NCBI GenBank assembly: GCA_012813795.1
Contig: GCA_012813795.1_4087.1
Strand: one strand, 5' to 3'
DNA from: a phage
DNA: 64,000 nucleotides
Shown here piece after piece: positions 1,221 to 62,909 of the stretch; the first letter of the stretch is position 1; each line of letters begins with the position of its first letter. The notes beneath the pieces were generated by a model. That model did no database searches and was not told where the DNA came from. It worked only from the letters and a program-made list of their open reading frames with translations. Position numbers and translations under genes: made by a program.

Positions 1221-3883
1221 TGGCAGATACAAGTAAAAAGTTTGCAAAGGAACAGTTGGGTCGTTTTGACCCATCTTATCCACAATTAGCAACCGTTATG
1301 GATAACCGAGATCCTACGAAATCTGGTAAGCTAAAAGTATGGATACAAGGTTCACAAAGTGATAAAAACTCTAAAGATTCATGGATTGAAGCTTCATATA
1401 TGGCCCCGTTTGCTGGTAAAACCCCAGGAATACCAAGTGCAGATAGTTATGGACAGTATCCAAAAGGTTATGGTTTTTGGGCCGTACCACCAGATGTGGG
1501 ATGTACAGTTGTTGTTATTTTTGCACAAGCACGTACATTCCAAGCTTACTGGATTGGGTGTGTTTATGACCAGCGTATGAATACGATGGTTCCTGGTATG
1601 GCAACTGCTGATACAAATTACAATGGCACAGATATGCCATTACCAGTAACTGACTATGATCGTAACACAATCACAACTGACATGCAAGACAAATATATTA
1701 ACGTTCCTGCTGTTGAAGGATTGAAAAAACAAAACTTATTATACGATGATGAAGCAGGTGTTGCAAACCGCAGCAGTACTCGTCAAACAACCAGTACTGT
1801 ATATGGTATGAGTACACCTCGTGGTAATAGTTTTATTCTTGATGATGGATATACAGAAGAAGAATTGACCAAGCCAACATGGGATCAAGACCCTGATGGA
1901 TACCAAGACACACAATTTAACAACCCAGTTAATGACACTCGTGTTGGTTCCCGAAAGAATGAAGGTATTGTTATTAAAACACGTAGTGGTGCACAACTTC
2001 TTATTTCTGAAACCACTGGTAATGTTTTATTAATTAACCGTGATGGTACGGCTCGTATTAAATTCACTGGCGATGGTGATATTGAAATGCACTGTGATAA
2101 AAACATAAACATTCGTGCAGGTCAAGATATTAACATGGTTGCAGGTCGTTCTTATAATATTGAAAGTGGGCAAGACTTCAATACTCGTGTTGGTGGAAAT
2201 ACCAAACTGGAATTGGTCGGTAATTTGGATGCTAAGGTCAATGGTCAGGTTGTAATTAATTCTGGTGCTGATCTTCGTTTGGTTACTGGTGCTTCATTAC
2301 GTCTTCAAAGTGGTAGCAGTACTGATATTACGGCTGGCTCAACAGCATCTGTTAAAGGTTCATCCTCTGCAAACGTTATTGGTGGCTCATCCGTTAACAT
2401 TAGTGGTGGTGGTCAAAACCTAACAGTTGATAGTGCTGGTAACAGTGGTAGTGCTGCATTCATGGCTCCTGATTTTAAAACACCATCAGTGGGTCTTAAT
2501 GATCACATTCATATGATTGCTAACTGGAAAGATGCAGAAAACCACGGTGATAGAGTTGATCCTGGTATAAGTGGTGGTGGTCAAGGTAGTACAACATCTC
2601 CAGTTGAGCCACAACCAGCAAATGATGTTCAACCTACACTTGCAGAGCAACAAGAAACAGACGCAATTCAATTTGTAAATTATGCCCCAGAGACAAGTGA
2701 AGTTCAAACACAAGATTTAATGGCGGCTGAACCAGGAATGACTGGTTATTCGCAGACATTTGAAGGTTTGCATATGCTTATGCCATGTAGCGGTACTATT
2801 CGCCAGAATGGTTATTGGGGTAAGGGTGTAACGACCGAGAATGGAACCAAGCGTGATAGTAGTGGATGGGAAATTCAAGCCCGTGGAAGTGTGGTTGCAC
2901 CAGATGGTGGGATTGTTGGTATCAGTGGTGATGCTCTTATTATTGAACATAAATCTGGTTATAAATCTGTTTTCTATGGTTTAACTTCTGACCTATTCAA
3001 TAAAGATGTTGTTGAAAAAGGACAAGTAATAGGAACTGCTAATGGTATATTACGATTTGAAATAAGAGTTCGCTCATCTAATATCTATGGTTTTAGTGGT
3101 TCAGTTGATCCTGGATTATTCTACACAACTGTAACTGGTCAGGGTTCTGCTGCGGCGAACAAAACATTAATTGGTGGTCAACCATCAACACAAAATAACC
3201 CTAAAGATGTGGTAAGACCATCTGCTGATAGTGATGAATTAGTAATATCAACTCGAATCCGAACAATTGGAACTGGATATTCACAACGTGGTTCACGACA
3301 TGTTCCGCGTCGTAGGGAACGTAAACCTCGAAATGCAGGAACTGCACCAAAAGCAGAACAAAATTATAACGTAGGTAATGTTGATAAAACAGCAGTTGGG
3401 TGGAAAGTTGCCCCAGGTGATTCACAGTTTGTATCTGAACTTAAAGAACATGAAGGTACGATCCAATATCAAACTGCACTTGGATATTTCAGAAATGGAA
3501 AATTCTGGCGTTATATTGATAGTCGTGGTTTTCCTACAATTGGATATGGACATCTTATTGATGGTGGTGAAGATTTCTCTGGTGGTATAACTGAAGCAGA
3601 AGCTGATGCAATGCTAGTACGAGACAGTACTCAAGCAATCAATGATGCAAAATCAATATATGCTGCATGGGATTTAAAAACACCAGTTATTGCTCAACAA
3701 GTACTATGTCAAATGGTATTCCAAATGGGCAAATACAAAGTACAAAAATTCAAGGGTATGCTTGGGTGTTTAGCTAAAGGTGATTATCGTGGTGCTGCTG
3801 CTCATATTCGAAGTTCCGCTTGGTATCGTCAAACAACTCGTCGTGCTGAGTTAATGGCACGTAGAATTGAGGCATGTCAATAA
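1220..3883 (+). CDS. baseplate central spike/hub protein (gp5/VgrG-like) with beta-helical repeats, degenerate M23-like domain and C-terminal T4-type (GH24) lysozyme domain
   Basis: 887 aa. N-terminal OB-like segment; G/S/N/V-rich beta-helix-like repeats (NINIRAGQDINMVAG...); M23-like pattern (APDGGIVG...LIIEHKSGYKSVFYGL...KGQVIGTANGILRFEI) lacking the HxH histidines; C-terminus from about 3390 matches T4 lysozyme motifs (EG...IDSRG...PTIGYGHL...MVFQMG...SAWYRQTTRRA). Confidence 0.75.
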   Translation: MADTSKKFAKEQLGRFDPSYPQLATVMDNRDPTKSGKLKVWIQGSQSDKNSKDSWIEASYMAPFAGKTPGIPSADSYGQYPKGYGFWAVPPDVGCTVVVIFAQARTFQAYWIGCVYDQRMNTMVPGMATADTNYNGTDMPLPVTDYDRNTITTDMQDKYINVPAVEGLKKQNLLYDDEAGVANRSSTRQTTSTVYGMSTPRGNSFILDDGYTEEELTKPTWDQDPDGYQDTQFNNPVNDTRVGSRKNEGIVIKTRSGAQLLISETTGNVLLINRDGTARIKFTGDGDIEMHCDKNINIRAGQDINMVAGRSYNIESGQDFNTRVGGNTKLELVGNLDAKVNGQVVINSGADLRLVTGASLRLQSGSSTDITAGSTASVKGSSSANVIGGSSVNISGGGQNLTVDSAGNSGSAAFMAPDFKTPSVGLNDHIHMIANWKDAENHGDRVDPGISGGGQGSTTSPVEPQPANDVQPTLAEQQETDAIQFVNYAPETSEVQTQDLMAAEPGMTGYSQTFEGLHMLMPCSGTIRQNGYWGKGVTTENGTKRDSSGWEIQARGSVVAPDGGIVGISGDALIIEHKSGYKSVFYGLTSDLFNKDVVEKGQVIGTANGILRFEIRVRSSNIYGFSGSVDPGLFYTTVTGQGSAAANKTLIGGQPSTQNNPKDVVRPSADSDELVISTRIRTIGTGYSQRGSRHVPRRRERKPRNAGTAPKAEQNYNVGNVDKTAVGWKVAPGDSQFVSELKEHEGTIQYQTALGYFRNGKFWRYIDSRGFPTIGYGHLIDGGEDFSGGITEAEADAMLVRDSTQAINDAKSIYAAWDLKTPVIAQQVLCQMVFQMGKYKVQKFKGMLGCLAKGDYRGAAAHIRSSAWYRQTTRRAELMARRIEACQ

Positions 3884-18440: not shown

Positions 18441-18476
18441 AAAAAGGAGAGCCAATGGCTCTCCTTTTCTTTTTCT
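18441..18476. terminator. bidirectional rho-independent terminator between convergent giant gene and clpA
   Basis: AAAAA GGAGAGCC-AAT-GGCTCTCC TTTTCTTTTTCT; A-run upstream and T-run downstream. Confidence 0.8.
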
Positions 18477-20761
18477 TACACTACAGATGGGGTTTTAACT
18501 TGACGCTTTGGTTTGATAGCCAATTTGCCGTTAATTACATCAAATGTTACGTTTCCACCATTTACCAGAGAACCACACAGCATTTCTTTAGCCAGAGGAA
18601 CACGGATATTTTGTTCAATGGTACGTTTCATTGGACGTGCACCCATTCCAGGCTGAACACCATTTGCTTCTAACCATTCACGGGCCGCTTTAGTAATAGT
18701 TACTTTCACGCCACGTTCTTTGATTTGTTCATTTAGACCAGCCATGAACTTATCGATAACACTTTGGATAGCTTCACTAGATAGCTCATTGAACTTCACG
18801 ATACTATCGATACGGTTTAGGAATTCAGGTGGTAGGAAAGCTTTCACTGCTTTCTCTTGTGCAGTTTCACCACCACTTAAACCCAGACTGCGTTTGTTTG
18901 CATCTGCTGCACCTAGGTTGGTAGTCATAATAACTGTTACGTTGTTAAAGTAAACAGTTTTACCTTGAGAACCAGTTAGATGACCTTCATCCAGAACCTG
19001 TAGGAAGGTTAGCAGTACTTTAGGGTGAGCTTTCTCAATTTCGTCCAGAAGTAGGACAGCATTTGGGAATTGCTCAATCTTATCCAACAGTAGACCATTA
19101 CCAGTGTCATGACCAACATAACCTGGAGGTGAACCAATTAGTTTTGCAACGGTATGTTCTTGTGAAAATTCAGACATATCGAAGCGAATCAGTTCAGACC
19201 CCATTGCATCTGCTAGTGCTTTGGTAATTTCAGTTTTACCAGTACCAGATGGACCGACAAACATGAATGCACCTTGAACACTTGCTTTCTCACGCAGACC
19301 TGCACGGGCAACCATTACGTTATCTACCAATTTCTCAACTGCTTCTTCTTGACCGAATACACGGCTACGAAGTGCTGCTGGTAGTGACTTCATGCGTTCA
19401 GTTTCAGTACATGCCACTACGTTGATATCCAAGTTTGCAATTCCAGAAACAACTTCTTGAATTGTGCGTAGTGAAATTACGTTATCAGAATCATCACGTG
19501 AACGTTTCTTAGCTGCTGCTGCATCCATCAGGTCGATTGCTTTGTCTGGGAAGTGCTTGTTCTTCAGGAACTTATCACTCAAAGACACAATCGCATCCAT
19601 TGCTTCAGCACTGAAAGTTACGTTATGGAATTTCTCATAAGTACCTTGTAGACCATTTACAATCGCACGAGTTTCTTCAATTGTTGGCTCAACTACGTCA
19701 ATTTTCATGAAACGACGAGTTAGTGCACTATCTTTCTCGATATTTTTACGGTATTCATCGTAAGTAGTTGCACCGATTACACGAATCTCACCACGAGATA
19801 GTGCTGGTTTCAACATATTACTCATGTCCATTGAGCCGTTGCTTGCAGAACCTGCACCAACCATGATATGGATTTCATCGATGAACACGATTGTATTTTC
19901 ACGCTTCTTCAGTTCTTTGAGAAGATTATCAATACGCTCTTCGAATTCACCACGGTACTTAGTTCCAGCAGTTAGTGCACCAACGTTGAGAGACAAAATC
20001 TCAATGTTTTGTAGATGTTCTGGTACATTACCATCAACGATTGCTTGTGCTAAACCATCAACAATCTGAGTTTTACCAACACCAGCTTCACCAGTAAGAA
20101 TAGCATTCTTTTTAGTTTTACGTGCTAATGTTTCAATCAGTGCGTCCAGTTCTTTTTGACGCCCAATCATTGGGTCCAGTTTGCCATCTTTAGCCAACTG
20201 TGTTAGGTTGGTCGTGTAATCTTCAATTGATTTCTGTTTTGATGCAGGTTGTTGTTGAGCCACCTTTTTCTCCCCAGTAGGTTCATCAGCGATGCTTTGT
20301 AGGTTAATTTCAGAATCAAGAGATTCTACATATTTCTGAAGAGTACGGGCCGCTTCAGTGCGAGTTACACCCTCTTCCAACAATGCTGCTTCTAATGCAG
20401 TGTTTGGGAATGACAAACATTCAAACAGTACAAAGAATGCATCAATTGAGAAATCGTCACGTTTGAGTTGTTCGATGACAGATTTCTTAGATAGTTCTTG
20501 CATTACACGATTGACGATTAGTGTAGTGCGATTAACTTCTTCCCCCATAGTGCTGCGTGGTGCGTGTGGAACATTGGTATTTTTCAGATATTCAATCAAG
20601 CGATCACGCACTTTCGTTGCGTCAACGTTCATTGTCCCAAATACATCAATAATGCTATCCACTGTCAGCACTGTAGCACTGATGTGATCGATTGTCAAGA
20701 AAGTATGACCCATAGAGGTTGCAAGGTCGTCGCTGCTTTTGAATAGCTGTGTTAAATTCAT
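18476..20761 (-). CDS. clpA: ATP-dependent Clp protease ATP-binding subunit ClpA homolog (two-ring AAA+ unfoldase)
   Basis: 761 aa; N-domain, D1 Walker A GEAGVGKT and Walker B IVFIDEIH, D2 Walker A GPSGTGKT and Walker B LLLDEIEKAH, and a hydrophobic-Gly-Leu tripeptide (KRSLGL) at the position of the ClpP-docking loop; alignable with bacterial ClpA over full length. RBS GGAGAG upstream. Confidence 0.9.
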   Translation of the reverse strand: MNLTQLFKSSDDLATSMGHTFLTIDHISATVLTVDSIIDVFGTMNVDATKVRDRLIEYLKNTNVPHAPRSTMGEEVNRTTLIVNRVMQELSKKSVIEQLKRDDFSIDAFFVLFECLSFPNTALEAALLEEGVTRTEAARTLQKYVESLDSEINLQSIADEPTGEKKVAQQQPASKQKSIEDYTTNLTQLAKDGKLDPMIGRQKELDALIETLARKTKKNAILTGEAGVGKTQIVDGLAQAIVDGNVPEHLQNIEILSLNVGALTAGTKYRGEFEERIDNLLKELKKRENTIVFIDEIHIMVGAGSASNGSMDMSNMLKPALSRGEIRVIGATTYDEYRKNIEKDSALTRRFMKIDVVEPTIEETRAIVNGLQGTYEKFHNVTFSAEAMDAIVSLSDKFLKNKHFPDKAIDLMDAAAAKKRSRDDSDNVISLRTIQEVVSGIANLDINVVACTETERMKSLPAALRSRVFGQEEAVEKLVDNVMVARAGLREKASVQGAFMFVGPSGTGKTEITKALADAMGSELIRFDMSEFSQEHTVAKLIGSPPGYVGHDTGNGLLLDKIEQFPNAVLLLDEIEKAHPKVLLTFLQVLDEGHLTGSQGKTVYFNNVTVIMTTNLGAADANKRSLGLSGGETAQEKAVKAFLPPEFLNRIDSIVKFNELSSEAIQSVIDKFMAGLNEQIKERGVKVTITKAAREWLEANGVQPGMGARPMKRTIEQNIRVPLAKEMLCGSLVNGGNVTFDVINGKLAIKPKRQVKTPSVV

Positions 20762-20800
20762 GTTCTCTCCTATGTGATTCTTCTCACTGTCATTAAAATC

Positions 20801-20828
20801 ATTATATCACATTCTTTCAGTTTGTCTA
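20801..20828 (-). promoter_or_regulatory. sigma70-like promoter upstream of clpA (TAGACA-N16-TGATATAAT)
   Basis: Minus strand reads TAGACA, 16-nt spacer, extended -10 TGATATAAT; about 35 nt upstream of the clpA RBS. Confidence 0.6.
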
Positions 20829-20869
20829 CCTAGTAAATACAGATATACCGATTTATTTTGGAGAACAAA

Positions 20870-35519: not shown

Positions 35520-35560
35520 TAAAATAAATACTTGATATAATTGTATGAGGATAGTCAATA

Positions 35561-37534
35561 ATGTCAATTAATAGAATTCGTGGTGATGGTGGTGTTATCA
35601 TAGATAGCAAAGCTTTCCTTGAACTACCAAAAGCCCCAACGATAGTAACAGCAGACCAAATGCGTACAGGTATGATTCGATACAACACTGAATGGAAAGC
35701 ATTCGAAGGTGTTCTCGAATTTGAAGATGGTTCAGTTGCGTATAGACGTTTTGCAAACCTAGATGCAAATGGCAAACTATTGTCATCTCAATTACCAGAT
35801 TCTGTAACAAGTGGATTGCAATTCCTTGGTACATATGATGCTATTGAAGATGATACAAATCCACCAGCATCCTATACAGCATTACCTGCACCATCTGTTT
35901 CCTTAAATGGTGATTATTATGTTGTTCGTGGTGTTATGGATGCAGCACAAGAGCACTATACACAAAATACCCCCACAACAAGCCCAGTTAAATTCACACC
36001 AGTGAATCCAACTGGTCAAGGTGATTGGATTGAAATTCTATATTATATAGATCAAAACCCAATTGAACCAACTAAAAAATTGGTAAGTTATGCGTTTGCT
36101 CGTATTATAACAACTGCAATCCCAGCAAGTGGTCATGAAGGTCTTGTGAATTTGGCACAAGATGAATCGATCACTACACCTTTTGATACATCTTTGACAC
36201 CACAAGGCCAAACTGCATTAGCTGATAGTGACTGGATTATCATCACTGAAACTAAAAACATTCGCCTACGTCAGTCAAGAGCTAGTATTTCAGCTTCTTC
36301 AGTACTGTATGATAACACTATCATGGTTGGTAGTCAACGTCAATTTAGTACCAACGCAGGTACAGTTCAAACTACCTTAGATAACCTCGTATTAGAGGGC
36401 TTACGCCGCACTGGTGACTCTATGGTTGATGATGGACTGATAGGCAAAGGAAGACTAGGGGTAACTTATGGTAGTGCTACAGAGCCAGCTATAGGCTTTA
36501 ATAACGCACCATATGACCCAAACACTAACCCAGGAAACGATCCAAGTAAATGGACTGACACAAAAACTGGTATTTTCCACCCAGCAGATGCCGCTATTGG
36601 TTTAACCACAGCAGGTGTTGAACGTGTGCGAGTAACAAATGGTTCTTTGAATTTATATCAAAGCACTACTACCCCCGCATCTGCACCAACATTACGTTTT
36701 GCTAATGCTTCCAACACAAACGTAGGCATTAGTGGTGAAAATAATATTTTGTCATTTAGTTCTATGAACAAAGTACAAGTTGAAATACAAAATGGTGTAA
36801 CCAAATTACATGGAAACTTAGAAGTTGATGGTATTAGTACTTTAACGGGTGATGTTACGGCGGTTTCAAATGTTACAACTAATGGTAATTTGAACGTTAA
36901 AGGGAATACTATATTAGGAACTGGTAGTTCAACTAATTTATTAACAGTTAACTCGGTGTCCACGTTTAATAAAGAAACTAATTTTATCAATGCTAATAAT
37001 AATTTTAATGGAATCCTGCTAACCAGTGGTAATTCATTTAGATTTGCACACGTTACCAACGATATTAATATGAAACTACTAAACGGTGAATTGCGTATGG
37101 ATGTTCGTGGTTATGCGGATTTATCTGTATATGACAGTAATGTGTTGCGTACACGTATTAACCGTTATGGTATCCAATTACCAGTACTGACAACTGTTAA
37201 TGACAGTGAAGGTGTTGATGGTATGATTGCGTACTCTGAACAGAATAGAACATCAATGCAGAAAGTTGATGGTAAATGGGTTCCGATTGGTTCTGGTACA
37301 GTAAGAACTACATTATTCACTGTTGATAATTGGGTACTTGATGGTGCATATTACAGACTGACAGTTCCAGAAACTGATATAGTTAATGCTGAAATTCAAG
37401 AACAAGTAGCAACTGATGAATTTGTTAAAGTTGATGTTGATAGTGTTAAGTTTACATTAACTGGTGTAGTTTATAGTATTCCTTCTTCTCCTGATGTTCG
37501 TTTTGCAGGAAGAACATTAGTAACCGTGAAATAA
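35561..37534 (+). CDS. tail fiber protein
   Basis: 657 aa; N-terminal conserved-looking segment (GMIRYNTEWKAFEGV), fibrous middle and distinct C-terminus; RBS GAGGA; both ATAAATA and TGATATAAT boxes upstream. Confidence 0.55.
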   Translation: MSINRIRGDGGVIIDSKAFLELPKAPTIVTADQMRTGMIRYNTEWKAFEGVLEFEDGSVAYRRFANLDANGKLLSSQLPDSVTSGLQFLGTYDAIEDDTNPPASYTALPAPSVSLNGDYYVVRGVMDAAQEHYTQNTPTTSPVKFTPVNPTGQGDWIEILYYIDQNPIEPTKKLVSYAFARIITTAIPASGHEGLVNLAQDESITTPFDTSLTPQGQTALADSDWIIITETKNIRLRQSRASISASSVLYDNTIMVGSQRQFSTNAGTVQTTLDNLVLEGLRRTGDSMVDDGLIGKGRLGVTYGSATEPAIGFNNAPYDPNTNPGNDPSKWTDTKTGIFHPADAAIGLTTAGVERVRVTNGSLNLYQSTTTPASAPTLRFANASNTNVGISGENNILSFSSMNKVQVEIQNGVTKLHGNLEVDGISTLTGDVTAVSNVTTNGNLNVKGNTILGTGSSTNLLTVNSVSTFNKETNFINANNNFNGILLTSGNSFRFAHVTNDINMKLLNGELRMDVRGYADLSVYDSNVLRTRINRYGIQLPVLTTVNDSEGVDGMIAYSEQNRTSMQKVDGKWVPIGSGTVRTTLFTVDNWVLDGAYYRLTVPETDIVNAEIQEQVATDEFVKVDVDSVKFTLTGVVYSIPSSPDVRFAGRTLVTVK

Positions 37535-37564: not shown

Positions 37565-38494
37565 TTATACAGCCATTGGTGCTTTGATTGTTGGCATTGG
37601 ATTGTAATTCAAAAGTTTGAAAGAATCCATTGTAAAATCTTCAATATCGGTAATTGAAGGATCTAGCCATAGTTCTGGTAATTCACGTGGTTCACGTTGA
37701 AGTTGTTCTTTTACTTGTTCAACGTGGTTTTTGTAAATGTGACAATCACCACCATTCCAAATAAACTCACCAACCTCAAGTCCAGTGATTTGTGCAATCA
37801 TATGGGTTAGTAGTGAATAGCTACTAATATTAAATGGTACTCCCAAAAATAGATCCGCACTGCGTTGATGTAGAATACAGCTTAGCTTGCCCTGTACGAC
37901 ACAAAACTGTACAAAGCTATGGCAGGGTGGTAAAGTCATATCATCAAGCTCACCGACGTTCCAGGCACTTAGAATGTGACGGCGACCATATGGGTCGGCT
38001 TTAATACCCTCAATAACTTGTTTTAGCTGGTCAGTAACTCGACGCATAACAACACCATGAGCACCAGTATAATCAATAACTTTATAACCTTTATCTTTCA
38101 ATTCTTGAATTTCTTCAGTACTGGTACTGAATTTATAATCTTCCCATTCACGCCATTGCTTACCATAAACTGGTCCAAGCTCACCATTAGAATATCCAAG
38201 AGCTACACCTTGATTAAGGTAGTTATCTGTCCAAATTGTTTTCTTTTCCCAATCACGAGTGCCGTGTAGAATTTCACACAAGCGACGCTCATCATGAGAA
38301 CCTTCAATGAACCATAATAATTCTGAAGTCATTGCTTTCCAAGCTAAACGTTTGGTTGTCACTGCTGGAAAGCCTTGTTGAAGGTCAAAACGCATTTGTT
38401 GACCGATTAGTTTGATAGTACCTACACCTGTACGATCAGTACTTTCTACGCCTTCATCCAGAATTTTTTGATATAGTTCTTGTAGTTGTTTCAT
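37565..38494 (-). CDS. thyA: thymidylate synthase (ThyA family, with a small-domain insert)
   Basis: 309 aa; DRTGVGT, LAWKAMTSELLWF, ILSAWNVGELD, catalytic PCH and the dUMP-specifying Asn in GVPFNISSY; alignable along its length with bacterial ThyA apart from an insert of about 35 aa. Confidence 0.9.
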   Translation of the reverse strand: MKQLQELYQKILDEGVESTDRTGVGTIKLIGQQMRFDLQQGFPAVTTKRLAWKAMTSELLWFIEGSHDERRLCEILHGTRDWEKKTIWTDNYLNQGVALGYSNGELGPVYGKQWREWEDYKFSTSTEEIQELKDKGYKVIDYTGAHGVVMRRVTDQLKQVIEGIKADPYGRRHILSAWNVGELDDMTLPPCHSFVQFCVVQGKLSCILHQRSADLFLGVPFNISSYSLLTHMIAQITGLEVGEFIWNGGDCHIYKNHVEQVKEQLQREPRELPELWLDPSITDIEDFTMDSFKLLNYNPMPTIKAPMAV

Positions 38495-39380: not shown

Positions 39381-40029
39381 TCTTACGCTCTGCAAAAACA
39401 AGTTTTAGTTTCTCAATTGCTTTGGTTTGAGAAATACCTTCTGGGAGTTCAATGTAAAAAACTTTCTTATCAGAATCAGTTTTCACATTCGTTTCGTTGG
39501 GACGAAGAGAAGGTTCTAGGTTATAAGCACGCTCATAATGCTCTTTAGATAATTGATCATATTTTGCAGCAGTTTTTAGTAGTTCATCAACAATAGTTTC
39601 ATCTTCGACTTTTGTATCTTGAACTTGTGGATTGAATGGGTTGTAATCTTTTACTTTACCATCTTCATGTTTTTTACTTTCATTACCGTCGATTGCATCA
39701 TTCAGTACATCAAGTGAAATCTTGTTGTTACCGCCAGTGTGCATGTCAATATCACAAGTACGGACCTTACGTAGATATTGTAGATTGTGAAGAACATCTA
39801 GCATTTTACGACCATCGAGATAACCTACTTGATGCATAACTTCCCAAAGTTCAACAGAAGCTTGTCCACGACCCATAACTAAATCGGTTACAGCAGATAC
39901 ATATGCTTCTGGAAGTGAGTCACGATACACCACTAGACAATGATCATGATCATCTGGAAGTGAACGCCAAACAACGAAAACACGAGAACCAGTATTACGA
40001 ATTACACCTGTGTGACGAATAGCAGCCAT
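39373..40029 (-). CDS. hypothetical protein
   Basis: 218 aa ORF with ATG/stop overlap with the upstream gene; no motif recognised. Confidence 0.5.
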   Translation of the reverse strand: MAAIRHTGVIRNTGSRVFVVWRSLPDDHDHCLVVYRDSLPEAYVSAVTDLVMGRGQASVELWEVMHQVGYLDGRKMLDVLHNLQYLRKVRTCDIDMHTGGNNKISLDVLNDAIDGNESKKHEDGKVKDYNPFNPQVQDTKVEDETIVDELLKTAAKYDQLSKEHYERAYNLEPSLRPNETNVKTDSDKKVFYIELPEGISQTKAIEKLKLVFAERKNG

Positions 40030-40271
40030 TATTCTTCCCCTTCTGTACCAGCGGTATCTTGTGCTTGAGCAGCAGCTTCTTCACGTTCTTTGATATCAGC
40101 AAGTGCTTTATCAGCAAATTTAACGAACTTAGAAACAATTGGTGCTACGTTCACTAGTTCATCAACTTGAAACGCATTACGTGCAACCGCAGATTCCATA
40201 ATACGAGCAGCGTTGATTAGGTCAACTAGGTCTAGGATTACTTCGTCTTGTGCATTGTTTTCAGTACTCAT
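40029..40271 (-). CDS. hypothetical small acidic protein
   Basis: 80 aa; first gene after the promoter at 40305-40332. Confidence 0.45.
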   Translation of the reverse strand: MSTENNAQDEVILDLVDLINAARIMESAVARNAFQVDELVNVAPIVSKFVKFADKALADIKEREEAAAQAQDTAGTEGEE

Positions 40272-40304: not shown

Positions 40305-40332
40305 ATTATATCATAGTTAATTGGGTTGTCCC
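40305..40332 (-). promoter_or_regulatory. sigma70-like promoter (GGGACA-N16-TGATATAAT)
   Basis: Extended -10 TGATATAAT with GGGACA at -35 on the minus strand, just downstream of the vWA terminator and upstream of the 80-aa gene. Confidence 0.5.
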
Positions 40333-40337
40333 AATTA

Positions 40338-40368
40338 TAAAATAAAAGAGAACGACGAATCGTTCTCT
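40338..40368 (-). terminator. rho-independent terminator after the vWA gene
   Basis: Perfect 8-bp stem AGAGAACG / CGTTCTCT with a T-rich tail on the minus strand. Confidence 0.65.
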
Positions 40369-40378
40369 ATATTTATTT

Positions 40379-41865: not shown

Positions 41866-43191
41866 TTAACCAAGAGAACGTGCTTTGCGTACTAGGTCAG
41901 AGTACTTCATAACGAAGTCTTTGAACGCTGGAACATCTTTGTACGCAATCGCTACCTTATGTTGAGTGATGGTACGAATTGCTAGTACTGCCAGTTCTGC
42001 CTGAGTTTCGGAGAAGTTACGGTCCAGGAAGGTGATGAAGTTGTTGCACAGCTTGCCCCACTCTTCAACTGGAAGACGTTGTTCTTGCTTCTCATTGTAC
42101 AGGTCGATAATTTTATAAACCAGATTCAGAGAGATGAAGTAGTTCGCAGAAATATCCAGCGTTGCATCAATCTCTTTAATCTCACCCTGTAGGATGGACA
42201 TAGTATCTGGTAGTTTAGATACGTTTTCTACGTATTCGATATATTCAGTTGCTACACCTTCACCAACACGACCAGCGATTAGAGCACGGAACACTTCTTT
42301 ATCAATGTTGTTGCCTTTCTTCAGGTCTTCGTAGCGTGCTACTGCTTCCCATGAACGTGGAGAAGTACCACCACTGTGAGAAGGATCTTGTGGGCTAAGG
42401 GTGTTGAAGTACTTAGCACCAGTGTTGTTGATGAACGCAACAGTACCTGGGTTCAAACGCTTAGCAATCGCGTAATCGTCAATCCAATCTTGATGGTAAG
42501 GAACCATTTCGATGTGGGTCATACGGTCACGTAGTGGCGTTGCCAGAGAGAACGTTACGCCGCCATCAGTTTCACGGTTACCTGCTGCGAGAATCAGTGC
42601 AGTCTTAGGTAGCTTCATCTCACCAACACAACGGTCGAGGATTAGCTGATAAGACGCTGCCTGTACAATCGGCATAGCAGAGTTAATTTCGTCAAACAGG
42701 ATAACACCTTTCCAATCTGGAGACAGTTTCAGTACTTTAGGTGCTGCCCATACAACTGCTGTTTCAGCAATGTAATCTTTAGCTGTTTCCAGTTCAGATT
42801 CAATCAGTTGTTTGCCATCCATATCCAGGAACACTTTTTCAGGGACTGGGATACCACGTAGGTCACTTGGTTCAATCTGTGACAAACGGAAGTCGATGAA
42901 GTTAGTGTCTTGGTCAATCAGTTTTGCTTCAAACGCTGCCAGTTCGCGGCGAAGTGCATCAGCATTTTCAGCATCAACTTCAATTTGTTGTTTCATGAAC
43001 TCGATTTTAGCCAAGTTATCCTTACGAAGAGGATAGTTCTCGTCAGCGTATTGACGTGCAATCGCAGACTTACCGATACCAGGGCTACCCCAAATCATCA
43101 GACTGTCCTGAATTTTATCTGCCAGAGCCATAGCCATTTTTGCTTTCTTAGGAGTCAGTTTTACGTTCAGGATATCTTGTTGTTCGCTCAT
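41866..43191 (-). CDS. AAA+ ATPase, MoxR/CobS-like
   Basis: 441 aa; Walker A GSPGIGKS, Walker B ILFDEINSA, sensor region LILAAGNRETDG; immediately upstream of the vWA gene (the classical MoxR-vWA pairing). Confidence 0.8.
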   Translation of the reverse strand: MSEQQDILNVKLTPKKAKMAMALADKIQDSLMIWGSPGIGKSAIARQYADENYPLRKDNLAKIEFMKQQIEVDAENADALRRELAAFEAKLIDQDTNFIDFRLSQIEPSDLRGIPVPEKVFLDMDGKQLIESELETAKDYIAETAVVWAAPKVLKLSPDWKGVILFDEINSAMPIVQAASYQLILDRCVGEMKLPKTALILAAGNRETDGGVTFSLATPLRDRMTHIEMVPYHQDWIDDYAIAKRLNPGTVAFINNTGAKYFNTLSPQDPSHSGGTSPRSWEAVARYEDLKKGNNIDKEVFRALIAGRVGEGVATEYIEYVENVSKLPDTMSILQGEIKEIDATLDISANYFISLNLVYKIIDLYNEKQEQRLPVEEWGKLCNNFITFLDRNFSETQAELAVLAIRTITQHKVAIAYKDVPAFKDFVMKYSDLVRKARSLG

Positions 43192-43357
43192 GTGTATTTT
43201 CCTTTTGTTGGATAAAAAACTAGGTTTATATTATAACCAATCCGTTGGCAAAAGTAAAGGAACTGTGTTAAAAGTATTTTAACTTATCAGTTCCTTATCT
43301 TCAGTGAATCATCCGTGTGTTTAAAAAGGTCAATCTTGTTTGCCGTCTTGATGTGGT

Positions 43358-43385
43358 CATTATATCACATCGTTCAGGCTTGTCA
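43358..43385 (-). promoter_or_regulatory. consensus sigma70-like promoter (TTGACA-N16-TGATATAAT), proximal copy
   Basis: Minus strand reads TTGACA AGCCTGAACGATGTGA TATAAT; upstream of the AAA-ATPase/vWA operon. Confidence 0.65.
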
Positions 43386-43451
43386 ACAACTTTTTTTTCT
43401 TTCTTTTTCAATCTCACATCTTGTGATTTTGAAATCTTGCTTCGTGACGTT

Positions 43452-43479
43452 CATTATATCACGTTAATCTGTACTGTCA
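43452..43479 (-). promoter_or_regulatory. consensus sigma70-like promoter (TTGACA-N16-TGATATAAT), distal copy
   Basis: Minus strand reads TTGACA GTACAGATTAACGTGA TATAAT; in tandem about 94 bp upstream of the proximal copy. Confidence 0.65.
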
Positions 43480-43544
43480 ACATCTTTTTCATTTTTATTT
43501 TCGAAGCGTTCTACATATGCATCGAAAATAACTGCTTGAAATCA

Positions 43545-43889
43545 TCACCGACACAATGTTAATTCAGTAACTACCATTGCGTCGGAGAGATATATGTAGT
43601 AGCCATCAACATAATAAGGACTTCTACATATTCTATCAAGCGATGTAAATATTATAGAGCTTTTGAACTCTCTTAGCAAGGGGATTTTTGTAAATTCATA
43701 AAGATTATTTTCTTCACAAATCATAAATCCATACTTACTAAGCCTCAAACCACCACCAGTTCTGAAGTTTTCAAAAATAGACATCAGAAGCATTCTGTCA
43801 GTGATTTCAGCGTCCGATTCATGTACTTCTTTAACTTTTATAAGTACTTCATTTTGAAATTCAGTGCTGTTAGTGGGTTGTGGTATCAT
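43545..43889 (-). CDS. hypothetical protein
   Basis: 114 aa ORF, tightly packed with upstream ORFs. Confidence 0.4.
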   Translation of the reverse strand: MIPQPTNSTEFQNEVLIKVKEVHESDAEITDRMLLMSIFENFRTGGGLRLSKYGFMICEENNLYEFTKIPLLREFKSSIIFTSLDRICRSPYYVDGYYIYLSDAMVVTELTLCR

Positions 43890-47851: not shown

Positions 47852-49965
<2,114 letters not shown>

Positions 49966-62576: not shown

Positions 62577-62909
62577 TTACTCTTCTTCGTCAGTTACATC
62601 AACTACAACTGGACGGTCTGGATGGTTTCGGTGGTGCAATTTAATGCTTTTGTCTTTACTGAATACAGTTTCCATTTTTTCGAATGAATCGACAATCGCC
62701 TTGTATAAATCTGCATCATCGGCAGTAACAGACTTACCACCTGATGTTAAAGTTACTGCGTACTGTGTCTTATGCTCTTTTTTCACATGAACACCAATAT
62801 TCAGTACTGAAGAATCACTAAATTTATTTAGAGTGTTTGCTTCTTGATGAATTGCGTCATGGATTGCTGGAGTAATATCAACATTACCTTGAATAACTAG
62901 ATTTAGCAT
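62577..62909 (-). CDS. hpf: ribosome hibernation promoting factor / RaiA-family homolog
   Basis: 110 aa; LNLVIQGNVDITPAI...VHVKKE...VTLTSGGKSVTADDADLYKAIDSF...KLHH follows the HPF/YfiA pattern as recalled from E. coli HPF; followed by a hairpin terminator. Confidence 0.75.
   Translation of the reverse strand: MLNLVIQGNVDITPAIHDAIHQEANTLNKFSDSSVLNIGVHVKKEHKTQYAVTLTSGGKSVTADDADLYKAIVDSFEKMETVFSKDKSIKLHHRNHPDRPVVVDVTDEEE

Follow-up and report, generated by a model that had tools for sequence, protein, structure and literature searches.

A 12-mer, TCATTATATCAC, recurs letter for letter at four places in a stretch of phage DNA of 64,000 nt, which is referred to as the window in the following, and the locus at 20799-20829 contains the first of these copies. 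The questions raised by this locus are whether the repeat is an element in its own right or the most regular part of a larger promoter family, which genes stand behind it, and which sigma factor would read it.

The window is 99.2-99.4% identical, in reverse-complement orientation, to Escherichia phage A4 (ON286972), a Rak2-like jumbo myovirus of the genus Asteriusvirus with a genome of 355.5 kb. The region is common to approximately 60-70 relatives, the hosts of which belong to Escherichia, Klebsiella, Salmonella, Erwinia, Serratia, Yersinia, Pectobacterium and Cronobacter. It represents a tail and baseplate module, inside which minus-strand islands of non-structural genes are found. The genes of importance for the present analysis are the following.

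18476-20761, minus strand: ClpA-like gene, in a non-structural island
37565-38494, minus strand: thymidylate synthase, reached by a small-ORF operon that is headed by an 80-aa ORF (40029-40271)
start codon at 43191, minus strand: MoxR-type ATPase with its DUF2201/VWA partner, in a non-structural island
54668-55294, minus strand: dNMP kinase, in a non-structural island
ATG at 59123, minus strand: Nudix/glutaredoxin/macro-domain operon, in a non-structural island

Recurrence of the 12-mer

Exact copies of TCATTATATCAC begin at 20799, 43357, 43451 and 55551, all on the plus strand, with the minus strand reading GTGATATAATGA in each case. Shuffling gave a mean expectation of 0.04 copies, and none of 100 shuffles reached four, so that the occurrence of the repeat at four sites in a single orientation, as reported in the first-pass annotation, is borne out by the exact scan. 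The shorter 9-mer TGATATAAT is found 11 times, versus 2.0 expected. Seven of its copies are located between genes or at the 5' edge of a gene (20801, 40305, 43359, 43453, 55553 and 59163 on the minus strand, 35533 on the plus strand), and four within coding sequence (21030, 34381 and 49031 on the minus strand, 23901 on the plus strand); the probability of finding at least six of the 11 in the non-coding fraction of the window, which amounts to approximately 5%, is about 5e-6. At all seven intergenic or 5'-edge sites TG stands one base before TATAAT, as in an extended -10 element.

The upstream hexamers described earlier are present as well, with TTGACA at 43475-43480 and 43381-43386 and TAGACA at 20823-20828, each at a spacing of 16 nt, and with GGGACA at 40327-40332 and 59185-59190 for the two variant sites. 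The copy at 55551 had been said to lack a -35 element; this is correct, because a terminator hairpin sits at that position. At the level of sequence, the proposal of extended -10 promoters of the sigma-70 type is thereby supported, and the sites are indeed co-oriented with non-structural genes on the minus strand, 33-261 nt upstream of the ClpA-like gene, the ATPase/VWA pair, the small-ORF operon that leads to thymidylate synthase, and the Nudix operon. Loose sigma-70-like matches are not enriched in the region (56 versus 69 expected); generic scanning for the sigma-70 consensus is uninformative here, and the signal resides only in the strict extended -10 architecture. The best two consensus matches in 20 kb are the tandem sites at 43451 (P1) and 43357 (P2), both with 12 of 12 positions together with TG.

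It might be argued that the sites are no promoters at all, the 12-mer being the product of chance, of coding constraint or of some other signal, for instance a site for a nuclease or for packaging. Such a view could draw on the four copies of TGATATAAT inside genes and on the copy at 55553, which doubles as a ribosome-binding site and start codon, but it is hardly credible in the face of a chance expectation of 0.04 and of sites which are intergenic, co-oriented, placed at a fixed distance from a second box, and kept at orthologous positions while their spacers diverge.

The predicted promoter family in the genome of phage A4

In the A4 genome, GTGATATAATGA is present in six copies, all on one strand. 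The pattern TGnTATAAT occurs at 85 sites, 33 of which lie in the intergenic 9% of the genome, an enrichment of approximately fourfold, and 30 of these 33 are co-directional with a gene that begins at most 300 nt downstream. The first-pass annotation had held that an equal frequency of the motif inside genes would speak against promoters; what is found instead is this intergenic enrichment, and the in-gene copies, 30 sense and 22 antisense, are without clear strand bias.

The family was defined by a position weight matrix, iterated from the intergenic A4 sites until it converged. It comprises approximately 47 sites, 46 of 47 on one strand, which are strongly enriched between genes and follow the pattern A-rich tract, TGGGACA, 13 nt, then G-TG-A/C-TATAAT-GA. 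The A-rich tract extends from -45 to -39 and the heptamer, T-G-G/A-G-A-C-A, from -35 to -29, followed by the 13-nt variable spacer; in the -10 region, the matrix frequencies are G 0.60, T 0.91, G 0.98, A 0.60, TATAAT 0.94-1.0, G 0.53 and A 0.51. Each letter of the 12-mer is the majority base of this matrix. About 3.6 exact 12-mers are predicted among 47 sites, as compared to six observed genome-wide and five within the 47-site set, and ordinary promoter consensus thus suffices to explain the exact repeats. The notion of a special 12-mer element has to be given up accordingly, since it is merely the consensus of a bigger family; the four exact copies in the window are very probably consensus copies of an extended -10 core, G-TG-A-TATAAT-G-A, covering positions -16 to -5. 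Family sites in A4 precede the genes of a gp55-like late sigma factor, DNA polymerase, ssb (with a tandem pair), primase and exonucleases, and furthermore those of topoisomerase, a Clp protease and a tRNA.

Predicted promoters of the non-structural islands

Applied to the window, the family matrix assigns scores of 24-31 to the sites at 20801, 40305, 43359, 43453 and 59163, whereas shuffled windows yield 0.3 hits at a score of at least 14. It also picks up the in-gene site at 49031; the lack of an upstream box keeps the score of the site at 55553 below 9. The five high-scoring sites are good members of the family. In all of them the heptamer ends 13 nt before the TG, and they are situated either 33-39 nt upstream of start codons with a Shine-Dalgarno sequence or, at 167 and 261 nt, ahead of a structured leader.

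20799..20829, minus strand: predicted promoter of the ClpA-like gene, GTAGACA (20823-20829), 13 nt, TGATATAAT (20801-20809); score 24.5
40305..40333, minus strand: predicted promoter of the 80-aa ORF operon, TGGGACA-N13-TGATATAAT; score 25.5
43357..43387, minus strand: predicted promoter P2 of the tandem pair, A-rich tract, GTTGACA, 13 nt, TGATATAAT; score 30.7
43451..43481, minus strand: predicted promoter P1 of the tandem pair, A-rich tract, GTTGACA, 13 nt, TGATATAAT; score 28.2
59163..59191, minus strand: predicted promoter of the Nudix hydrolase gene, TGGGACA-N13-TGATATAAT; score 28.0
43257-43296, minus strand: leader hairpin of the ATPase, AAGGAACUG...CAGUUCCUU, with a U-rich tail behind it, downstream of the tandem promoters and ahead of the ATPase gene

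Upstream of the ClpA-like gene, 39 nt separate the -10 element from the ATG at 20761, with GGAG as Shine-Dalgarno sequence; the promoter is kept in phage 121Q as GTAGACA-N13-TGATATAAT. The promoter of the 80-aa ORF follows directly on a terminator hairpin (40347-40368), and its boxes and spacing are kept, with a diverged spacer, in 121Q, BF17, UE-S1, SD-6, RaK2, 7t3, fHe-Yen9-03 and CBB. The promoter at 59163, in front of the ATG at 59123 and of an operon which includes glutaredoxin and macro-domain genes, is likewise kept in 121Q.

The ATPase start codon at 43191 is 167 nt downstream of P2, which is kept in four Asteriusvirus relatives; P1, a further 94 nt upstream and thus 261 nt from the start codon, is present in every Asteriusvirus relative examined, with TGATACAAT or TGTTATAAT as variants. 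Between P2 and the ATPase gene, the leader hairpin overlaps a third promoter-like site, TTTACT-N17-TATAAT (43230-43258, minus strand). These leader elements (43230..43296) are kept in relatives, and the matching hairpin of CBB has been listed as terminator Torf215. A scan of the whole window against Rfam at gathering thresholds returned zero matches, so the 350-nt gap which holds P1 and P2 does not correspond to a known RNA family. A greedy ORF caller had placed a plus-strand ORF at 43317-43562, making P1 and P2 appear antisense; this ORF is spurious, the annotations of A4, 121Q, BF17 and UE-S1 being without a gene there, and the stretch is treated as intergenic.

Conservation and the published promoter class

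Three promoter classes were derived by MEME for Pectobacterium phage CBB (Buttimer et al. 2017, PMC5259590), namely RpoD-like promoters with an UP element, a 'divergent RpoD-like' class (Promoter 1), and ATAAATA late boxes; the divergent class was reported for Cronobacter phage GAP32, too. Table S6 of the same work (PMC5259590) lists 18 CBB sites of the form TGAAACG-N13-TGnTATAAT, a 7+13+9 layout. The window family shares with them the 7-nt upstream box, exactly 13 nt of spacing and TGnTATAAT, as well as the gene set, that is, DNA synthesis genes and a gp55-like sigma factor. Three members even occupy orthologous positions: 20801 corresponds to Porf_235, TGGAACG-N13-TGCTATAAT, upstream of the ClpA-like gp235; 40305 corresponds to Porf_218; and 59163 corresponds to Porf_193, TGAAACA-N13-TGGTATAGT, upstream of the nudix gene gp193. 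What differs is the box itself, TGAAACG in CBB and TGGGACA here, with TAGACA or TTGACA at some sites; in the notation of the full heptamer, the window has TGGGACA, GTAGACA or GTTGACA, and only G2, A5 and C6 are shared with the CBB box. The predicted window family is accordingly regarded as a lineage variant of the CBB/GAP32 Promoter 1 class, both sets being computer predictions. It restates, for a new genus, a class which had been predicted by MEME in CBB and GAP32, and is in this respect largely ordinary. Promoter analyses are contained neither in the RaK2 paper nor in the Sharanji paper. The record of Yersinia phage fHe-Yen9-03 annotates minus_35 and minus_10 signals (the latter of 9 nt) at two orthologous sites, one upstream of the ATPase and one upstream of the ORF orthologous to 40029-40271, which follows the VWA/DUF2201 gene.

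In a comparison by eye of eight relatives from several genera, the boxes and the 13-nt spacing were found to be kept and the spacers to have diverged. This can be seen for the site upstream of the 80-aa ORF.

Window: TGGGACAacccaattaactaTGATATAAT
121Q: TGGGACAacttataaaaataTGATATAAT
BF17: CGGGACAgcttggaaaaaggTGATATAAT
RaK2: TTGAACAaaataaatattccTGATATAAT
CBB: TGAAACGtaccaaaattttaTGGTATAAT

Upstream of the ATPase, the Asteriusviruses have their tandem pair with perfect TTGACA, whereas CBB has a single TGAAACG site, which is outside its published table. RaK2, 7t3, CBB and the Yersinia phage possess one promoter each at this place, provided with the box of their own lineage: TTTGACA in RaK2, GGGACA in 7t3 and TGAAAC(G/A) in CBB and the Yersinia phage. 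A single promoter with a lineage box thus stands where the TTGACA pair is found in Asteriusviruses, from which it follows that, at one orthologous site, a lineage box can take the place of TTGACA and vice versa.

Doubtful copies

Three further occurrences require separate treatment.

55551..55562, minus strand: 12-mer without a -35 element, directly after a terminator hairpin (about 55571-55599), upstream of a 96-aa ORF (55297-55587) and the dNMP kinase gene
49031..49039, minus strand: in-gene TGATATAAT, in sense orientation inside a structural-protein gene, 160 nt upstream of a head-completion gene
35533-35541, plus strand: TGATATAAT abutting an ATAAATA late box (35524-35530), after a terminator hairpin

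The copy at 55551, counted earlier among the promoters, is real as a 12-mer, but in the window phage it runs into the start of the following ORF: it holds both the probable ribosome-binding site (GGTGA) and the only in-frame ATG (as TATAATG) of the 96-aa ORF. In 121Q the same 12-mer stands behind the same terminator, approximately 27 nt before a normal Shine-Dalgarno sequence and ATG, and is there a conserved non-coding extended -10 element devoid of a -35 box. A deletion of approximately 41 nt has brought the 96-aa ORF up against this copy in the window phage and in A4. With the only ATG lying inside TATAATG, a transcript from 55553 would serve the dNMP kinase and not the 96-aa ORF. CBB has an ATAAATA box at this position. 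The copy may be an extended -10-only promoter.

No -35-like heptamer accompanies the site at 49031, where CGAGCCG is found instead; the 9-mer is present at the same place in 121Q, and whether it represents an internal promoter or a coding coincidence is uncertain. The plus-strand variant of the first-pass annotation does exist, at 35533-35541 rather than at 35532-35540. It is located upstream of a structural gene (35561-37534) and was not retained as a variant of the family, since 121Q keeps just the adjacent ATAAATA box and not TGATATAAT. With ATAAATA next to it and alone kept in 121Q, the site is reassigned to the late class, and it is probably not a family member.

Early, probable middle and late promoter classes

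The small-ORF early region of A4 (6-25 kb) is characterized by a different signal, AAAAAGTAC-TTG(A/C)CA-N16-GTATAAT-nnTTTACATC, followed by a 5' UTR hairpin. These early promoters are very stereotyped and without the canonical TGn, and the extended -10 family avoids the region. The window sites, on the other hand, do have TGn, together with other flanks and a location within the structural module; no early-type promoter was seen in the window by the sigma-70 consensus scan. At the other end of the series, ATAAATA is depleted in the window (14 versus 30 expected), and most of its copies are located just upstream of structural genes. The minus-strand family sites do not carry the ATAAATA box of the T4-type late promoters (TATAAATA / ATAAATA), and their separation from the ATAAATA late boxes, as drawn in the first-pass annotation, is upheld by the lack of this box. 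Enrichment of 7-mers in A4 intergenic DNA revealed no fourth class, just the early, middle and late boxes, terminators and Shine-Dalgarno sequences.

One alternative, in line with the view of the first-pass annotation, is that unmodified host E-sigma-70 uses the sites as ordinary early promoters as soon as infection begins. The perfect sigma-70 extended -10 element would agree with this, and so would TTGACA and the A-tracts at P1 and P2; E. coli extended -10 promoters need no -35 element. The suggestion is nevertheless unlikely, because the small-ORF region has a separate, stereotyped early class with another -35, another -10 flank and another 5' UTR, because the family keeps away from that region and stands ahead of replication and late-sigma genes, and because a non-host heptamer is conserved within each genome. 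In view of the gene set and of the three-class layout, the extended -10 family is probably composed of sigma-70-family promoters of a middle (delayed-early) class. A literature search for TSS, RNA-seq or expression-timing data on Rak2-like coliphages found none.

The middle class would thus follow a distinct set of early promoters and precede the ATAAATA late class. In the window it would drive the islands of non-structural genes embedded within the late structural module, and genome-wide the genes for replication, recombination and nucleotide metabolism as well as that of the gp55-like late sigma factor. Its full signal would consist of four parts, an A-rich UP-like tract at approximately -45 to -39, a -35-like heptamer, exactly 13 nt, and TGnTATAAT. 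Going by the consensus, the core of host RNA polymerase with a sigma factor of the sigma-70 family would bind TGnTATAAT by means of regions 3.0 and 2.4 of this factor, the DNA would melt from -11, and transcription would start approximately 7 nt downstream. Through the lineage-specific heptamer, a phage-encoded factor that sets the timing most likely comes to recognize the promoter as well.

Possible recognition by sigma factors

In all genera examined, the -10/TG element agrees perfectly with the host sigma-70 consensus, and two window members, P1 and P2, have perfect TTGACA and A-tracts; that host E-sigma-70 would be able to use these promoters is a reasonable, if not firm, expectation. Host-RNAP dependence of the sites, as proposed in the first-pass annotation, is plausible.

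The phage has a sigma-70-family factor of its own, an observation with a bearing on host-RNAP dependence. This protein, A4_181, is encoded outside the window and matches Pfam regions 2 and 3, the match to region 4 being below threshold. In group-1 sigma factors, a WW dyad and the residues H..E serve recognition of -12/-11 and of TG; in A4_181, T-S replaces the WW dyad and Y..V replaces the TG-contacting H..E of region 3.0. Should the family be its regulon, the phage sigma factor would be one in which the tryptophan dyad and the TG contacts typical of housekeeping sigma factors are gone. Region 2.4 of the phage sigma factors varies between genera, the -10 motif TGnTATAAT being invariant. Both the replaced residues and this variation favour host sigma-70 as the factor able to read the -10 element.

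The heptamer behaves differently from the -10 element, in that it is fixed within each genome and different between lineages, as is compiled below with the putative recognition helix of the sigma factor.

A4 and 121Q: heptamer TGGGACA; putative helix SRSS(V/I)HRKY
PHA46: heptamer TGGGACA (14-nt spacer); putative helix SRTSLHRCY
RaK2: heptamer yTGAACA; putative helix VRGTLHYKF
CBB: heptamer TGAAACG; putative helix SKATLSRRY
Yersinia phage: heptamer TGrAACA; putative helix SKATLSRRY

All of these phages have hosts among the Enterobacterales, and host sigma-70 alone would hardly explain a heptamer that differs between them. It is probably read by a phage factor, for which the phage sigma factor appears as the most likely candidate, although the identification can be made only tentatively. 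The sigma factor of PHA46 has 45% identity to that of CBB and 38% to that of A4, yet it shares the helix residues and the heptamer with A4. A position-by-position covariation of helix and heptamer is suggestive, and just that, because approximately four lineages are available and the boxes of RaK2 and PHA46 are alignable with a 1-nt offset.

A scheme can be drawn up in which host core and a phage sigma-70-family factor (the A4_181 orthologue) read the whole promoter, with region 4.2 recognizing the heptamer; the cascade would then proceed from host sigma-70 for the early genes via the phage sigma-70-like protein for the family to the gp55-like sigma factor for the ATAAATA late class. This scheme is conceivable, though the case for it is a divided one. 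The heptamer, fixed within a genome and specific to the lineage, is what it would lead one to expect, the putative recognition helix changes in step with it, and PHA46 matches A4 in both although its sigma factor is overall closer to that of CBB; A4 has no fourth intergenic motif class that could be attributed to the phage sigma factor, and in A4 and CBB alike the late-sigma gene has a member of the class in front of it. It is difficult to reconcile, however, with the loss of the group-1 residues for -12/-11 and TG (WW to TS, H..E to Y..V), with a region 2.4 that is not conserved between genera while TGnTATAAT is invariant, with the sub-threshold Pfam match to region 4, and with the perfect host TTGACA in some family members; moreover, the covariation is fragile with about four independent lineages and a possible 1-nt offset for RaK2 and PHA46. 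That the family as such is the regulon of the phage sigma-70-like protein, the region 4.2 helix having co-evolved with the lineage heptamer, should likewise be taken as a tentative suggestion.

An upstream box at a fixed distance may also be read by an activator. In the manner of T4, an AsiA-like protein would remodel region 4 of sigma-70 and a MotA-like activator would bind the heptamer, and the combination of a good sigma-70 -10 element with TGn and a fixed-distance upstream box, in front of replication and late-sigma genes, is indeed reminiscent of such sigma appropriation. The T4 MotA box reads (a/t)(a/t)(a/t)TGCTTtA and is centred near -30. The box of the family is not a MotA box, and its distance of 16 nt upstream of TATAAT is ordinary -35 spacing. 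With T4 MotA and AsiA as queries against the A4 genome and ORFs, tblastn gave a best E value of 1.4 and phmmer no hit, at sequence-level sensitivity only; since neither protein is detected in A4, appropriation of the T4 type is downgraded to a quite improbable explanation. Middle-class promoters of the sigma-70 family, with a heptamer probably read by a phage factor, are the preferred reading.

Significance and comparison with known systems

The analysis provides a testable promoter catalogue for the jumbo coliphages of the genus Asteriusvirus, with three classes defined by sequence, and the family shows where the non-structural islands inside the late module would get their transcription. Wider interest attaches only to the -35-like box, whose variation from lineage to lineage appears to follow that of the phage sigma factor's recognition helix. 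If confirmed, this tracking would explain the role of the conserved sigma-70-like gene of the 'group 2' jumbo phages; the regulon reading, if true, would provide natural orthogonal pairs of sigma factor and -35 box, useful for engineering, and a defined early-middle-late cascade for the Rak2-like phages.

With the extended -10 promoters of E. coli, the family has in common the TG one base before a perfect TATAAT and the preference for G at -16, and the -35 element may be weak or missing there, like at 55553. The family differs in keeping a non-consensus heptamer at fixed spacing, at approximately 40 sites of one genome.

The middle promoters of T4 combine, in a similar way, a good sigma-70 -10 element, often with TGn, and a phage-specific upstream box; they serve genes for replication, nucleotide metabolism and the late sigma factor, and are placed between an early class and a late class of the TATAAATA type. 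In T4, however, the upstream element is the MotA box, whereas the family matrix has TGGGACA at -35 to -29 and no TGCTT, and A4, without a detectable MotA or AsiA homologue, has instead a protein of the sigma-70 family (regions 2 and 3, weak 4).

A third precedent is provided by the phage sigma cascades, with gp28 and gp33/34 of SPO1 and gp55 of T4. Here, too, a phage protein of the sigma family could redirect the host core once the early phase is over, and A4 possesses the gene of a gp55-like late sigma factor. The middle promoters of SPO1, on the other hand, are unlike those of the host in both boxes, whereas the -10 element of the window family is that of the host consensus.

The Leader of the ATPase Gene

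The gene for a MoxR-type ATPase is preceded by a gap of 350 nt, inside which a tandem pair of consensus promoters is located.

43192-43544, minus strand: gap 5' of the MoxR-type ATPase gene
43257-43296, minus strand: conserved hairpin with U-rich tail, downstream of the tandem promoters
43230-43258, minus strand: third promoter-like site, TTTACT-N17-TATAAT, overlapping the U-rich tail

In Pectobacterium phage CBB, the counterpart of the hairpin is annotated as terminator Torf215 (PMC5259590), and the order of promoter, hairpin, and ATPase gene is preserved across genera. This conserved layout suggests that the promoter-hairpin region may function as an attenuator-type leader or give rise to a short RNA. 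The fold z-score here is -3.3, and no match was obtained in Rfam.

Three promoters of the same family in Escherichia phage A4 are each followed by 680-900 nt lacking an annotated gene on that strand, which could hold unannotated small genes or non-coding RNAs.

A4 ~65.1-65.8 kb (L004): gap behind a family promoter
A4 125.7-126.4 kb (L005): gap behind a family promoter
A4 205.5-206.3 kb (L006): gap behind a family promoter

Promoter Elements and Sigma Factors

The box ATAAATA is under-represented in the window (14 observed vs 30 expected, both strands); its sites include those at 3880, 4851, 8418, 26470, 26505, 29027, 35524, 47853, 51559, and 54624. The copies mostly lie immediately 5' of structural genes. 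Overall depletion together with this placement fits a functional late-promoter box that would be avoided elsewhere. One copy adjoins a family promoter, so the operon behind the latter may be transcribed from a middle as well as a late start.

40370-40376: ATAAATA, directly before a terminator hairpin and the 40305 promoter

Relative to the related phage 121Q, the window phage and A4 have lost ~41 nt between the -10 core 12-mer and the next open reading frame (55540-55600, minus strand). The loss took away the Shine-Dalgarno sequence and ATG of this frame, and the sole ATG left to it is inside the -10 box (TATAATG).

In A4, a near-identical element consisting of GGTTGACTTCGGTCAGCC, a T-run, and TGyTATAAT occurs in 6-7 copies at 328.8-338.7 kb (L008). 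It looks like a terminator/promoter fusion, with the -35 hexamer TTGACT within the terminator stem. The same hairpin accounts for three terminator listings in CBB (333-335 kb; PMC5259590), despite sigma proteins of A4 and CBB that are only ~34% identical. Orthologues of the A4 sigma-70-family protein A4_181 (L008 19937-20899, L018-L021, and L026 were compared) evolve fast, with 74% identity inside the genus and 32-45% when different genera are compared; this type of sigma carries a 12-residue insertion ahead of the region 4.2 recognition helix, and the WW dyad conserved in region 2 is missing from it. The label 'putative sigma factor / sigma 54' given in A4 and 121Q to the reading frame at 62577-62909 (minus strand) was rejected, as its Pfam match is Ribosomal_S30AE, a ribosome hibernation/sigma-54 modulation protein.

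A Nudix Gene in Two Reading Frames

58694-59123, minus strand: Nudix gene, directly 3' of promoter 59163

The coding sequence of this gene is divided over two reading frames: the first starts with the ATG at 59123, reads MRYSCGIIFYRDGQILVGHTT..., and stops after 31 codons, while the remaining Nudix domain (GQKHWDLPKGK...REcyEEtG) is in the +1 frame relative to this N-terminal piece. The extra nucleotide is identical in the window, A4, and 121Q, and differences between window and 121Q in the N-terminal piece are mostly synonymous in the first frame. Programmed +1 frameshifting in the vicinity of ACA-CGG could account for the arrangement, or else the gene could be conserved in split form; in CBB, gp193 comprises the entire Nudix protein in a single frame.
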